Sequence record: PQ014731.1
Reading direction: 5' to 3' (one strand)
DNA length: 64,000 nucleotides
DNA from: Escherichia phage VB-EcoM-WM
Each line of letters starts with the position of its first letter. The first letter of the stretch is position 1. Both the position numbers and the translations under genes were made by a program. The notes below the pieces were generated by a model. That model was given only the letters and a program-made list of their open reading frames with translations, was not told the origin of the DNA and searched no databases. Positions 50,827 to 55,415 of the stretch are shown piece after piece.

Positions 50827-53800
50827 ATGAGCATGTGGTCGTTCGATTTTGAGTCATCCGGTTTGCTGGAAGACCCAGATCTTTATTATCACTGCGGTCT
50901 GTTTAAAGAGTTGAATAAGAACCGTTTTATGCTGTTCCTTCCTCTAAATGACCGCACACACTACTCCGAGGAGGATATAGAAAAGGCTAAGAACTTCATT
51001 CTGGCAAAGAAAACTCTTTATAAAGATTTTGAAGTTCGCATAGCAGATTTTTCGGAGTTGGAAGGTTGGCTTACAGGAAATTCTGACTGGTCACCAACAG
51101 CTTTGAACTGCCATAACTGCTACAGTTATGACTTTATGCTGATGGAAAGATTATCCGGTATTCATTTTGATATGTTCCGTGATCCTAAATGTATGGGGAC
51201 TATCAACGACCACCAGGTTAACCTGTTTGATACGTTGGCAATGAGCCGAATCTTGTGGCCTGATCGCCCTTTACCAAAAGGTTGTCCGGACTCTGTATTC
51301 AACCCGGTTACTAAGAAAATGCAGCCTGTTGGTCCTCACGGCCTTATGGCATGGGGCTACGCTCTTGGTAACCAGAAAGTTCAAATTGATGACTGGCGCG
51401 ATCTTCCGCTGTGGAAGTATGTGGATCGTGTATTCGAGGACGTTATCATCCAGGAGCTGCTCTGGAAAGAGCTGGTAGCGGAATCAAAAGGTGTATTCTA
51501 CGGCAAATCTGACATGCAGAACTTTATGTACGATCCTGCCAAAGAGAAGCCGAAAGGGTTCAAGAAGATCACCTGGAAGAACGCATTACGCCGAGGCATG
51601 CTGCAGCACTTCCTGATGGAGCTGCAGGCCCGTCAGGGTGTGTATTTCGACATAGACGGGGCTATTGCTTTACGTGACCGCTGTGATGCGTGGATGAAAG
51701 AGATCGCTGATCGTGTTGAACCTCAACTTCCTTTAAAAGAGTTATCAATATCTCAGCGGCCTAAATTCCCTGAAAAGCCGTTCAACCAAGAGGGGACAAT
51801 TTCCAATAATGGCTGGAAATGGTTAAAAGATAAGCTTGGCTATCCTGTAGACATGAGCGCTTTAGAGTTCAAAGCCCCACCTAAGCGAGCATTTACCTCC
51901 ACAGGAGATGTCAGTAAAATGGGGATAAAATGGTGTGAAGAGATGGGCTGCAAAGACCCAGACAAGATGGCTGATTTCTTGAGAGGTTATATTAAGGGCA
52001 CCTCCACACCACAACCTTTACCTAAAGAGCTGATGGATCAGGCAATAAGCGATCTGCAGCAGAAGCGAATGCCTGACTGCAAGATACCTATGAAAATCAG
52101 CAATCAGGACGATATTAAGCGATACCTGATCAGTGCTGGTTGGCTTCCGACAATGTGGAGAACTAAGGATGTAACTAAAGACAGCAAGAAGAAAGCTCTA
52201 CCTGATGCAGATGTTGATGCACGAGTATATGCATATATGGACGAGCTTTTAGAGTCAGAGTATTGTGACCTGATTATCAACTTCTGGAACAAAACTGATG
52301 CTAAGTTCCAGACAACCGTGCACAAGTTCCGAAGCTTTCCTAACTCCGAAAGGATTAAAAAGGAAGTATTCGGGAAAATACGTAGAAAAGCCAGGGCACT
52401 TATTACTTCTCCGCAACTGAAAGATACGTTTGGACACCTATGTCCGAATCTTGAAAAATTGAACGGAGAGATGGCTAAAGATATCGTCTTGTGGTTATCA
52501 TTGCGAAACCGCAGATCGGTCCTTGATCCAATTAAGGAGGATAAGGTTGATACTGGTCTTCTTAATCACCCACGTTTGAAGATTGACCATAAGCTTCCTG
52601 CTAAAAGCTCTGGATTAACAAACACTTCCAGACAGAAACACAGTATTTGTGCAAACATGCCTAAACCATCTCCTAAAGTGGTTATGGGTAAAGAGATGCG
52701 TAGTCTGTGGGGTGTTCCTCCAGGATACTTTGAGATCGGTATTGACGGGTCCAACTTAGAGCAGCTTATCGGGGCTTGGGGTGCCTTTGAGTTCGACAAC
52801 GGCTTGTATTATGATGTTGTAAGTAACGGCGATGCACACTGCTATTCAGGAGATACACAAATTCTCACAGAGAAAGGGTGGATAAGGTTTGAAGATCTTG
52901 ATCAGGAAACGCAAGTGTTCCAGTACGATCACAACACCTCGTCAATGAGCCTTGTTACTCCACTAAACTACGTTAAGCGGAGTTATTGCGGGGATATGTA
53001 TCATTTCCACAACAGCAGCGTGGATTTTATGGTTACAGATCAACACAGAATGCTGACTGTTGACCACAGAAGCAATAAATTGTTTGAGGATTTGGCAAAA
53101 GATCTGAAAGCAGGCAAAGGGTCTAATTCAGGAAGAAGGTTTATCCATGCGGCAGAGTTTTATGGGAATACAACCTTATCCCCTGCTCAGATTAATTTAC
53201 TTATTGCTATCCACGATGACGGAAACTTGCATACAAATAAAGATGGAAGCAGCGTATGCAGGGTCCAGGTTGGAAAGGGGAGAAAAGTTGCAACGCTTTT
53301 GGATACCTTTTCTGCTCTAAATCTTGATTATACAGAGCAGTGCGGGAAAACAACCAAAGGAGGTTTGCTGGCAAGAAGATTCCAATTCCACGTGCCGTCT
53401 TGGGTGTTTAAGTTTTTGGACAGCAACAAAGATTTCACCTATAGTTTGATGGATCTTGATAAAGAATCTAAAAACCTGTTTATAGCTTCTTTATCTAACT
53501 GGGACGGGTGGGTATCTTCCGAAGGTGGAAAAGTTATTTACTACTCCCAGGCTGAGTGCAGGAAGAAATCTGTAGAAGTGGTGTCTGCCTTGGCTACTCA
53601 GTGTGGTTTACGGAACAACACGGTGACAATTCACAGAGAGGGTCGTGCCGTGCAGCACAGAATTACAATTGGTAGCAAACAGAAAGCAGGTTTACTAACA
53701 CTGGATAAAGATCTTGTCGAGGTGAGTAATTCTTTGGTTTATTGCGTCACCGTTCCCTCTGGAGCGATTATTGTAAGGAGAGGTGGCAAGGTTGCAGTGT

Positions 53801-54219
53801 GCGGCAATTGCAATAACGCCAAAGCCTACTCTGCTGTAGCAGGTAAGGAAATTTCCCGTAACGATGGTAAGCCTGTCACGTATGGGGTTATGTACGGGGC
53901 ACAAAAAGATAAAGTTGCAGACATGCTGGATATCTCTCCAGAGTTGGGGCAAAGGGTAATCGATGCGCTTTGGGATGCCAACCCCGGTCTTAAGGGGCGT
54001 AAAGAGGATCTGGAGAAATTCTGGGAAGCAACTGGTAAGAAGTTTATCTACTCTTTTGATGGTCATGCCATCTGGACCCGATCTAAACACTCTTTACTTA
54101 ATGCATACCAACAAAATGGCGGTGCATCGTTGTGTGATTTAGTTGGGATACTCATGCACCACCAAATGGTGAAGCGTGGGTGGTACGATGAAGGTGTTCG
54201 TCGTATTATTTATTACCAT
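50827..54219 (+). CDS. family A DNA polymerase (T7-like), exon 1, including an in-frame intein
   Basis: N-terminus MSMWSFDFESSG...YHCGLF...DTLAMSRIL parallels the T7 DNAP exonuclease domain; motif A region GIDGSNLEQL...GDAH; O-helix SRNDGKPVTYGVMYG after the intein; ORF stops one codon after ...IIYYH, before the HDE motif. Confidence 0.8.
52840..53808 (+). other. intein (323 aa) within the DNA polymerase
   Basis: Starts CYSGDTQIL (block A), has TDQHRM (block B), ends LVYCVTVPSGAIIVRRGGKVAVCGN followed by Cys; flanks align contiguously to T7 DNAP GDIH-TKNQ...RDNAKTFIYGFLYG; penultimate residue is Gly, not His. Confidence 0.7.
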
Positions 54220-54285
54220 AAATAACATTGTGGCTTCGTGCAGCGATGCACGTCGAAAACCTCTTTAATTGACGGGAAGGCTAAG

Positions 54286-54314
54286 TTGACTTTTACACCT
54301 AAACATGGTAAAAG
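54286..54314 (+). promoter_or_regulatory. candidate promoter inside the intron, upstream of the HNH gene
   Basis: TTGACT, 17 nt, TGgTAAAAG; same architecture as the late promoters at 7883 and 13700. Confidence 0.4.
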
Positions 54315-54359
54315 CTCAATATGCTAATCCGCAGCGAAGACTAAAGGGGTGTAGTTAAA

Positions 54360-54866
54360 ATGGCTAGATCAGCTGATTATCACGGGTATACCGTGTTTGA
54401 TGATGGAACAATACCTTTATCGAAACGTGATCATACAACAATGTTTTGTTTTGATAATGGTCGAGGTTACCTTTGCGTGACCATGTTCATAGAGGGGAAG
54501 CAGTACACAAAAGGTGTCCACCACTTAGTTGCTGAGTGCTTTGTATCAAACCCTGATCCTGAAAGGCTCACATGGGTGAACCATAAGGATGGAAATAAGT
54601 ACAACAATGCATACTGGAACCTGGAGTGGACCACCCCTGGTGGAAATATCAAACACGCCTACGATAATGACCTCAGAGTAAGGCCAGTCGGCGAGTATAA
54701 TGCCAATGCTGTGCTGACCGAGGATGAGGTAATGGAGATTTGTGAACTGTTACAGAGCGGTCTACGACAATGTGAGATTAGGGATCTTGGGTATCCTTAT
54801 GAAACGGTCAGAGCCATAAAGCAAAGAAGACAGTGGAAACATGTCTCTAAAAACTACACCTGGTAG
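54360..54866 (+). CDS. intron-encoded HNH homing endonuclease
   Basis: 168 aa; HNH_3-type core VHHLVAECFVSNPDPERLTWVNHKDGNKYNNAYWNLEWTT; sits between intron elements Q and R. Confidence 0.75.
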   Translation: MARSADYHGYTVFDDGTIPLSKRDHTTMFCFDNGRGYLCVTMFIEGKQYTKGVHHLVAECFVSNPDPERLTWVNHKDGNKYNNAYWNLEWTTPGGNIKHAYDNDLRVRPVGEYNANAVLTEDEVMEICELLQSGLRQCEIRDLGYPYETVRAIKQRRQWKHVSKNYTW

Positions 54867-55061
54867 TAACGTTCAGAGACTATCGAAAGCATAGCTCCAA
54901 CATAGTTTGGTGTGAAGAAGCGAGTAGAGTAGGCCAGCAAGTGCGGTCGAAATGAGAGGTGCCTTGGTAACAAGGCAGTGAGATAGTCCGATCCATACGG
55001 GAAACTGTATGGCTATGCACGTAATGGTGCGGGGTAGCTTAACGACCTACCTGAACTATTG

Positions 55062-55415
55062 GATGAGTACCAACTTCAAGTACCTGACACACCGAAGTAT
55101 AAGACTGTGTACACCTTCGACACAATCGAAGAACTGGAAGCATTTAAGGCAGAGCAGGAGGCCAAACTTCATGTGTTCGACGGTCATAAGTACAAAAAGG
55201 CACGCAAGGATGAGGACGGAAACGAAGTGGTTGACAAGGACGGAAATACGGTATACGATCCTATCTTGAACGATGACGGAAAGCTTGAACTTATCTGGAG
55301 CCCTGTGGGCGAAATGGTGGTGCATTGCTTCTGGCAAGCTTCTAAAATGATGGGCGTTCCGTTCCAGATCACAGGTGAATACTTGTGTGGTCGTAACTGG
55401 GGCGATTGTCACTAA
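55062..55415 (+). CDS. family A DNA polymerase, exon 2 (motif C to C-terminus)
   Basis: Begins DEYQLQV (completing HDE) and ends ...GRNWGDCH, paralleling the T7 DNAP C-terminus ...GPNWAICH; track start 55059 is TTG and is taken as the 3' end of the intron. Confidence 0.7.
   Translation, partial: DEYQLQVPDTPKYKTVYTFDTIEELEAFKAEQEAKLHVFDGHKYKKARKDEDGNEVVDKDGNTVYDPILNDDGKLELIWSPVGEMVVHCFWQASKMMGVPFQITGEYLCGRNWGDCH

Follow-up and report, generated by a model that had tools for sequence, protein, structure and literature searches.

The DNA polymerase gene of Escherichia phage VB-EcoM-WM was analyzed within a stretch of 64,000 nucleotides (nt) of sequence record PQ014731.1 (the whole stretch is hereafter called the window), where it occupies positions 50827 to 55415 and is interrupted twice, by a predicted intein and by a segment with the features of a group I intron. 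Its parts, in order, are these:

50827–54225, plus strand: open reading frame (ORF) of 1132 amino acids, with the C-terminal end ...IIYYH-K-stop
50827–52839, plus strand: polymerase N-extein (first part of exon 1), with the Exo I motif FDFE and the motif A Asp (IGIDGS), ending ...NGDAH
52840–53808, plus strand: predicted intein of 323 amino acids (969 nt), GDAH/CYSGDTQILT...VAVCGN/CNNAK
53809–54219, plus strand: C-extein part of exon 1, with Cys+1 and the O-helix (SRNDGKPVTYGVMYGA), ending ...IIYYH
54220–55061, plus strand: predicted group I intron of the IA2 type, 842 nt; U (54219) is the last base of the 5' exon and G (55061) that of the intron
55062–55415, plus strand: exon 2, which opens with the motif C catalytic Asp-Glu (DEYQLQV...) and ends ...GRNWGDCH, with the stop codon at 55413–55415

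Natural alleles in which one or both sites are empty are the strongest evidence for the boundaries of the two elements. The polymerase region matches 124 phage records, nearly all of them rV5-like coliphages (Vequintavirus), at 92–97% identity outside both inserts, and on this match the phage itself is assigned to the rV5-like (Vequintavirus) coliphages. An identical product of the 1132-residue ORF is recorded only in Logan assemblies of public sequencing runs, where the contigs are about 135 kb long. Both elements are present in the Mangalyan allele; JEP1 has the intein together with a 328-nt intron from which the endonuclease ORF is cleanly deleted; HeinrichReichert has the endonuclease-bearing intron and no intein, and its coding sequence is annotated as a join of two pieces; NHEP1 lacks the intron and has the intein, in a continuous coding sequence for 1248 amino acids; and about half of the 124 records (e.g. 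MaxBurger) have an uninterrupted polymerase gene of 2778 nt. Homology to intron-less NHEP1 breaks exactly at 54219/55062, and homology to intein-less HeinrichReichert breaks exactly at 52839/52840. When both elements are removed in silico the product is 925 amino acids long and aligns without gaps to the 925-residue MaxBurger polymerase, with 98.8% identity (11 amino acid differences). The initial annotation of this DNA had proposed a polymerase gene interrupted by an intein and a group I intron, to be checked by alignment to polymerases free of either; that alignment returns its extein junction (GDAH-CNNAK) and its exon junction (54219/55062) exactly, and the proposal is borne out by the breaks in HeinrichReichert and NHEP1 as well as by the folds and the conservation described below. 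Its 1132-residue ORF with exonuclease and motif A regions (FDFE, IGIDGS), its 323-residue insert bounded by Cys...Asn/Cys next to a His, and its stop one codon after IIYYH were likewise found at the positions listed.

The protein that remains when both elements are taken out aligns to T7 DNA polymerase residues 468–658 (E = 1e-15, where E is the expectation value) and has equivalents of T7 D475, H506, R518, K522, Y526 and H653-D654-E655. Within it the N-extein, whose nucleotide identity to Mangalyan is 96.8%, aligns with T7 residues 468–506, and the C-extein part of exon 1, which is contiguous with exon 2 in NHEP1 and MaxBurger, aligns with residues 507–653 and keeps the equivalents of R518, K522 and Y526. 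Exon 2 matches the C-terminal end of PHROG 8888 'DNA polymerase' (E = 5e-58); when exon 2 alone was compared with the PDB only chance matches were obtained, and T7 polymerase was not among them by sequence. The initial annotation was therefore right that the frame resumes 842 nt downstream and runs to ...GRNWGDCH, while the T7-like character it gave to this C-terminus is not confirmed by sequence, the PHROG match notwithstanding. The Pfam model DNA_pol_A scores 17.6 bits on the polymerase, under its cut-off of 34.3. With motifs A, B (the O-helix) and C all present, the sequence identifies the enzyme as a family A (T7-like) polymerase, in which motif C is complete only once the intron has been removed. 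The intein lies directly after the equivalent of T7 H506 (T7 NGDIH/T), which contacts the phosphates of the incoming deoxynucleoside triphosphate (dNTP) and is 12 residues ahead of the Arg in the O-helix; the intron divides motif C, separating the codon of its His (T7 H653) from that of the catalytic Asp (T7 D654). By this alignment the earlier statement that both elements are located at catalytic motifs is a fair one.

The 842-nt segment contains the following elements:

54216–54233, plus strand: P1 helix, in which exon CCAU plus intron AA (54216–54221) pairs with the guide UUGUGG (54228–54233)
54360–54866, plus strand: gene for a predicted HNH homing endonuclease of 168 amino acids, in the P6a loop, with the motif VNHKDGNKYNNAYWNLEW
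54872–55061, plus strand: 3' half of the ribozyme core, comprising J6/7, the 5' strand of P7 (GACUA), P7.1, the invariant GUA, P7.2, P3' (54954–54959), P8 (54960–54977), P7' (UAGUC), P9, P9.1, P9.2 and the terminal G

The opening six bases of the intron are the codons AAA TAA (54220–54225), which supply the Lys and the stop with which the 1132-residue ORF ends; translation of unspliced mRNA would give a polymerase that ends one residue past the His and lacks the catalytic Asp. A similar stop codon is found at the start of the Pf-WMP3 polymerase intron (PMC3428280). At the 5' splice site U54219 pairs with G54231, and all 13 homologues have this U.G pair; a possible P10 can be read by eye, in which GAUG of exon 2 would pair with CAUU of the guide region. 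The Rfam model RF00028 gives a full-length match (positions 54210–55011, model positions 1–253; 29.6 bits, E = 2.6e-5 locally and 1.3e-3 for the whole window). An Rfam scan at gathering thresholds returned nothing across the whole window, the intron being visible only with E-value reporting.

To evaluate the fold by covariation, 13 ribozyme cores (that of the window and its homologues at the identical H/DE junction, from at least six genera) were aligned with MAFFT (alignment A1). The homologues are from Vequintavirus (Mangalyan, JEP1, HeinrichReichert, rV5), Avunavirus (Av-05), Seunavirus (SSE121, PVP-SE1), Certrevirus (phiTE, CR9), unclassified Vequintavirinae (TH18), Plateaulakevirus (Aeromonas phiA019) and Pakpunavirus (Pseudomonas SPA01). 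From this alignment RNAalifold recovered P1, P2, P3, P6, P7.2, P8, P9, P9.1 and P9.2; of 63 pairs, 33 show compensatory changes. When a group I structure that includes the P3/P7 pseudoknot was specified instead, 99.0% of cells over the 13 homologues were paired, as against 35–42% with the partners slid, and compensatory changes were found in 29 of 54 pairs (including three in P3 and one in P7); none of 500 shuffles reached the observed values. Helices P3, P7, P7.2, P8, P9, P9.1 and P9.2 each show compensatory changes, P7.2 in three of its four pairs; P4 and P5, where a bulged A shifts the MAFFT register, were left out of the count. The GUA before P7.2 is invariant in A1, and P7.1 was identified only by inspection (in rV5, for example, UUCC-GAAA-GGAA). 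The mark of subgroup IA2 is a GUA-linked pair of helices, P7.1 and P7.2, that separates P7 from P3' (PMC3428280). On the P1 U.G pair, the terminal G, the restored frame, the covariation of the core and the P7.1/GUA/P7.2 arrangement, the segment is classified as a group I intron of the IA2 type. The group I core and HNH gene that the initial annotation placed in the intervening DNA are thus recovered by the RF00028 match, the covariation and the 168-residue ORF; of the database checks it had suggested, the Rfam search succeeded in giving a full-length match but not in passing the 50-bit cut-off, and the intein profile searches, described below, gave PDB and PHROG matches but left the Pfam and NCBIfam thresholds unmet.

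A former intron, or a free-standing HNH insertion, might also occupy this position without splicing any longer, in which case the polymerase would consist of two polypeptides that assemble after translation. The pieces are annotated as separate coding sequences in several GenBank records (e.g. Mangalyan, rV5), the Rfam score of the intron is under the gathering cut-off, and in phage CB7 an HNH-bearing intervening sequence in another gene did not splice, the split of Aeh1 NrdA by mobE being cited as a precedent (PMC7344957). However, the maintenance of the ribozyme fold by compensatory changes over at least six genera is unexpected if folding is not needed, and a break at this point would divide one catalytic motif between its His and its Asp. 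Moreover, exon 2 has no ATG at the junction (its mechanical ORF start is a TTG taken from the last three intron bases), no Shine-Dalgarno-like sequence was seen upstream of it, and the orthologous CB7 intron does splice (PMC7344957). A polymerase of two separately translated polypeptides is accordingly considered highly improbable, and splicing of the intron is the reading retained here.

The same intron site, H/DE, is occupied in Vequintavirus, Avunavirus, Seunavirus, Certrevirus, Plateaulakevirus and Pakpunavirus, and derived forms of the intron that lack the ORF (328, 317 and 276 nt) are frequent in relatives of the window phage. In the intron of the Salmonella phage PVP-SE1 (GU070616.1, locus positions 401–1319) a LAGLIDADG gene is located just after the 5' strand of P7, in the P7.1 region, and P6a is a short ORF-less hairpin; as most relatives have an HNH gene in P6a, one ribozyme has therefore been colonized by two unrelated endonuclease genes at two loops.

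The protein encoded in P6a of the window intron matches the structure of I-HmuI (PDB ID: 1u3e) over residues 12–100 (E = 3.7e-6), with the HKDGNK..NN core aligned, and phrog_59 'HNH endonuclease' (E = 6e-38); the Pfam model HNH_3 scores 17.7 bits, under its cut-off of 24.8. Its ratio of nonsynonymous to synonymous differences per site (pN/pS) is 0.07–0.22 against three orthologues. These matches identify it as an I-HmuI-type homing endonuclease, whose activity is predicted. A search of all six frames of the window revealed neither a paralogue of the HNH protein nor a second copy of the intein family. In NHEP1 (locus positions 3894–3905) the first 12 nt of exon 2 differ from window positions 55062–55073 by four synonymous changes (GACGAATATCAG versus GATGAGTACCAA), and intron-less MaxBurger is identical to the intron-plus exons over those 12 nt; NHEP1 may be an endonuclease-resistant variant.

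The key positions of the predicted intein are as follows:

52840–52842, plus strand: Cys1
53035–53046, plus strand: T66-D-Q-H69 of block B
53743–53745, plus strand: Cys302 of block F
53803–53808, plus strand: Gly322-Asn323

The segment runs from Cys1 to Asn323 with Cys at +1, and it is an in-frame insert that is missing from most relatives, in which the flanks are colinear. The same intein was found in 6 of 50,697 phage records, always at the polymerase site; these are six named phages in GenBank, with E. coli or E. fergusonii recorded as host, and in each the intein is located in the only polymerase gene. Since a replicating phage needs a working polymerase, the six speak for splicing, if indirectly. 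Between the window copy and the GenBank copies, identity is 88% at the DNA level and 92% at the protein level, and pN/pS is 0.11. Among sequences of known structure the match is to the AceL NrdHF intein (PDB ID: 6zgq; E = 7.7e-6 with the single sequence and 2.1e-13 with a family profile), and intein-containing PHROG families align over all 323 residues (best E = 1e-16); a protein homology search with the intein alone gave no significant match. An exhaustive representative search returned 7008 relatives (E ≤ 1e-3), all of them parts of larger proteins in which their positions differ, and several of the best are other phage family A polymerases that have the intein at the same GDxH/ site with Thr or Ser at +1 (P0005, P0012, P0018, P0020, P0035, P0150). 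The family is very large, mostly phage-borne and apparently uncharacterized, and the literature searches made gave no description of a vequintavirus polymerase intein.

The fold was predicted with AlphaFold (AF2). A model based on a 16-sequence alignment has a predicted local distance difference test score (pLDDT) of 92 and a predicted template modelling score of 0.90, as opposed to a single-sequence model, which was unusable (pLDDT 34). Foldseek searches with the former match TliVMA (E = 1e-14, template modelling (TM) score 0.69), PI-SceI and PI-PfuI, with E from 1e-14 to 3e-12, and the Hint domain matches AceL NrdHF with a target TM of 0.83. The model thus indicates that the 323-residue insert is an intein with a Hint fold, for which protein splicing is predicted.

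A signature of the family was computed over 160 related domains in many unrelated host proteins. Cys is found at position 1 in 100%, Thr at B:7 in 92%, His at B:10 in 100%, Cys at F:4 in 99% (159/160), Gly at G:6 in 94%, Asn or Gln at G:7 in 100%, and Cys, Ser or Thr at +1 in 100%. In the window intein Cys302, in VYCVTVP, is at block F position 4, Met is at B:12 (in the family M, C, L, I or V) and Cys is at G:5 (in the family T, S or C). Assignment to class 3 was considered and rejected: Cys1 is present in 160 of 160 domains, there is no Trp at B:12, and the W-C-T triplet is lacking. Class 3 traits are nevertheless present in the family, namely Cys at F:4, the position of the branch-point nucleophile, and the missing penultimate His. 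Judged by its conserved residues, then, the family joins the Cys1 nucleophile of class 1 to the branch-point Cys F:4 of class 3. A class 3-type splicing route for the family, or a hybrid one with dual nucleophiles, is a rather doubtful proposition. The two neighboring cysteines could form a disulfide, by which maturation of the replicative polymerase would be gated by redox state.

If the 323-residue segment were instead a lineage-specific domain that is retained, unspliced, in the mature polymerase, it would be less surprising that the segment scores below the thresholds of the curated intein models in Pfam and NCBIfam and that the penultimate His is missing. Such a domain would not, however, be expected to have the Hint plus LAGLIDADG fold of solved inteins, nor to share Cys1, His B:10, terminal Asn or Gln and Cys, Ser or Thr at +1 with 160 of 160 related domains across many unrelated host proteins. 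The insert adjoins a His that is conserved with T7 H506, for which contact with the dNTP is established knowledge, and six named phages carry it in their only polymerase gene. The penultimate Gly is itself a family trait (94%), and the penultimate His is not essential, as the closest solved relative, AceL NrdHF, splices efficiently and is also without it at G:6 (PMC7891396). A retained, non-splicing domain is therefore scarcely credible, and the segment continues to be treated here as an intein.

Within the intein, and directly downstream of it, two further features bear on its mobility:

53152–53697, plus strand: putative LAGLIDADG-type homing endonuclease domain (about residues 105–286 of the intein), with motifs LLIAIHDDG and FIASLSNWDG
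53809–53877, plus strand: divergent tract directly 3' of the intein, residues 672–694 of the mature polymerase (about 23 codons), likely a co-converted flank

The inner domain of the intein model matches I-DmoI over about 180 columns (Foldseek, E = 2e-6) and has two LAGLIDADG-like helices, each with a terminal acidic residue, in an alpha-beta-beta-alpha-beta-beta-alpha fold. In the family alignment (A2) D127 is present in at least 90% of sequences, and W221 and D222 are invariant. The Pfam model LAGLIDADG_3 matches three of 16 family members (best E = 1.3e-5), with no match for the window copy, and pN/pS of the domain is 0.11.

Of the 11 amino acid differences from the MaxBurger polymerase, seven are located in the 23 residues after the intein. 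This tract is common to all intein-plus alleles, which have CNNAKAYS(A/S)VAGKEIS where the empty alleles have QNNAEAYTKVAGREVS and differ at many bases; the flank upstream of the intein is nearly identical between the allele types, and co-conversion thus looks one-sided, affecting the downstream flank. Synonymous divergence is 0.27–0.52 in the intein as compared with 0.15 in the N-extein, and the window intein differs in DNA from all six GenBank copies by 12%, whereas the surrounding exteins differ by 3–4%. The lineage of the intein would therefore be older than that of the host gene, or have been acquired separately from it. A divergent intein and a foreign-looking downstream tract fit recombinational acquisition with co-conversion of the C-extein flank.

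Acquisition need not involve homing: both elements may splice while one or both endonucleases are inactive, with inheritance being vertical or by general recombination. Endonuclease loss is evidently frequent, as the ORF-less introns (328, 317, 276 nt) common among relatives indicate, and the LAGLIDADG domain of the window itself obtains no Pfam match. Both endonuclease genes are, however, intact and under purifying selection (pN/pS 0.07–0.22), conservation extends to the HNH core and to the acidic residue of each LAGLIDADG motif, and the synonymous divergence of the intein (0.27–0.52 against 0.15) together with the foreign-looking flank fits lateral acquisition. Inactivity of one or both endonucleases is thus on the unlikely side, although it deserves real weight, and it is compatible with splicing of both elements.

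Taken together, these results make it highly probable that two mobile selfish elements, independent of each other, reside in a single family A polymerase gene and that each removes itself at a different stage of expression. The gene would be transcribed as one pre-mRNA. The intron would fold such that P1, with its U.G pair at 54219, aligns the 5' splice site, and would be excised by two guanosine-initiated transesterifications; ligation of the exons would bring CAU (His) next to GAU GAG (Asp-Glu) and so recreate motif C. The spliced mRNA would be translated into a precursor of 1248 amino acids, from which the intein (Hint plus nested LAGLIDADG) would be excised by thioester chemistry and cyclization of Asn323, joining ...GDAH to CNNAK... 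to give the polymerase of 925 amino acids. Spread of the elements would depend on the LAGLIDADG domain in the intein and on the I-HmuI-like HNH enzyme encoded in P6a, which is probably a nickase: in mixed infections the endonucleases would cut empty alleles, into which the element would be copied by recombinational repair. Homing of this kind would account for the patchwork of alleles among relatives. The sequence analysis establishes where the elements begin and end, their folds, the conservation of their catalytic residues, purifying selection on the two endonuclease genes and the polymorphism in presence and absence; splicing of the RNA and of the protein in this phage, activity of either endonuclease and the choice of the initiating cysteine are inferred.

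Several observations weigh against this interpretation. The RF00028 score of 29.6 bits is lower than the curated cut-off of 50 bits; that threshold is a curation cut-off and not a biological criterion, and the score is lowered by the ORF insert of 510 nt and by the additional elements P7.1 and P9.x. The intein is likewise under curated thresholds, with 15.6 bits against 28.4 for Hint_2 (E = 0.02) and 18.1 bits against 24.5 for TIGR01445, which is attributed to divergence of the family from the seed sets of these models. Its penultimate residue (G:6) is Gly322 and not the usual His. Intein-less alleles have Gln at +1, which is not a nucleophile; an intein dropped into such an allele could therefore not function and must travel with its own flank, which supplies Cys+1. 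Finally, activity of both endonucleases is something that we infer from conservation only.

Several of these features have counterparts in known systems. The introns of phages phiI and W31 are reported, in a paper of 2004, to self-splice. They resemble the window intron in having a T7-like family A polymerase as host gene, Pol I position 881 as their site, a GUA link between P7.1 and P7.2, and P6a as the location of an HNH ORF, but their hosts are podoviruses of 40 kilobases (kb), whereas the window phage is a myovirus of 135–140 kb. E. coli Pol I position 881 is, by the established numbering, the His of the motif C sequence HDE. The location of the phiI and W31 introns at this site has been described (PMC3428280). 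Further counterparts are in the Certrevirus phages CB7 and phiTE, which also belong to the Vequintavirinae and have an orthologous intron at the identical position (IIYYH/DEYQ) with a homologous 3' ribozyme core, the CB7 HNH gene being CB7_50; the CB7 polymerase intron splices in vivo, as demonstrated by reverse transcription-polymerase chain reaction and sequencing (Buttimer et al. 2020, PMC7344957). CB7 differs in having a second polymerase intron in the O-helix (TYG/VMYGAQ), no polymerase intein, and a shorter HNH ORF (127 amino acids). That second, HNH-bearing intron, seen both in CB7 (locus positions ~900–1620) and in phiTE, splits the O-helix (...GKGVTYG/VMYGAQ...) about 30 residues downstream of the intein site of the window. 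The nicking endonuclease I-HmuI of the SPO1 DNA polymerase intron is a homologue of the window HNH protein, and each of the two is the product of an ORF within a group I intron that interrupts a family A polymerase; SPO1-type introns, however, are located at E. coli position 674, in the fingers (PMC3428280).

For the intein, the closest solved relative by sequence is AceL NrdHF, which shares with it Met at B:12 and Cys at F:4 and likewise lacks the penultimate His. It differs in having Ala1, in being split and in lacking an endonuclease, whereas the window intein has the invariant Cys1, is contiguous and bears a LAGLIDADG domain; AceL NrdHF is a proven class 3 intein, naturally split, with an M-C-T triplet and Ala1 (PMC7891396). 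The class 1 inteins PI-SceI, PI-PfuI and TliVMA share with it the Hint domain with nested LAGLIDADG, Cys1 and the terminal Asn (TM 0.6–0.7), but sequence identity is 11–14%, and at F:4 and G:6, where these inteins have Asp and His, the window intein has Cys and Gly.

The combination of an intein and group I introns in one gene is found in bnrdE and bnrdF of SPbeta, and the CB7 NrdA and NrdB genes also carry both (PMC7344957), although in all of these the host is ribonucleotide reductase and not polymerase. The initial annotation's description of the polymerase gene as a striking arrangement was therefore overstated: the intron is widespread and annotated as a join, its CB7 orthologue splices, and intein and intron occur together in CB7 NrdA and NrdB. 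The intron was in fact already known, from the join annotation in genomes of the BASEL collection, from splicing in CB7 and from the site held in common with phiI and W31. What is new is a rare vequintavirus polymerase intein whose family has the Cys1 plus Cys F:4 signature; in the three intein-carrying records that were checked, the product of 1132 or 1248 amino acids is named polymerase only, with no intein label. The general understanding of introns and inteins is unchanged by the polymerase case. The signature could help to relate class 3 to class 1 splicing, and the relatives, which are mostly >90% identical over the gene and in which the intein, the full intron, the ORF-less intron and the empty site occur in all combinations, constitute a natural system for the study of homing, co-conversion and fitness cost.

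The exact coordinates of both elements also permit correct annotation of the mature 925-residue polymerase. In several deposited vequintavirus genomes the gene is annotated as three pieces, namely a truncated polymerase, an HNH gene and a 'hypothetical protein'. In the rV5 reference (NC_011041.1, locus positions 304–3255) the polymerase is split as gp223 (775 amino acids, with a late start) and gp220, and two small ORFs are called in the 276-nt ORF-less intron; the rV5 paper gives a polymerase of 775 amino acids and mentions introns only in the terminase gene (PMC3606486). The polymerase gene is located directly downstream of a primase/helicase gene (48690–50768), and the order is the same in all relatives.

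Sixteen records named as Campylobacter phages (MG0656xx; C12, A135, A141 and others, host C. jejuni) match the rV5-like polymerase region, mostly at ~95–96%, and have the same intron variants as the rV5-like phages of E. coli; their labelling looks doubtful. The 43-kb Escherichia phage ECO104 4-5-2 (OR844702.1) was considered as a case of the phiI/W31 type and ruled out, as its polymerase site is a different one (SASNP/..NMQQLP). The element, at locus positions ~855–1580, interrupts a different family A polymerase (...RLSASNP/..NMQQLPRESK...) and is an ORF-containing intervening sequence whose 3' domain (P7'–P9.2) resembles that of the window intron.

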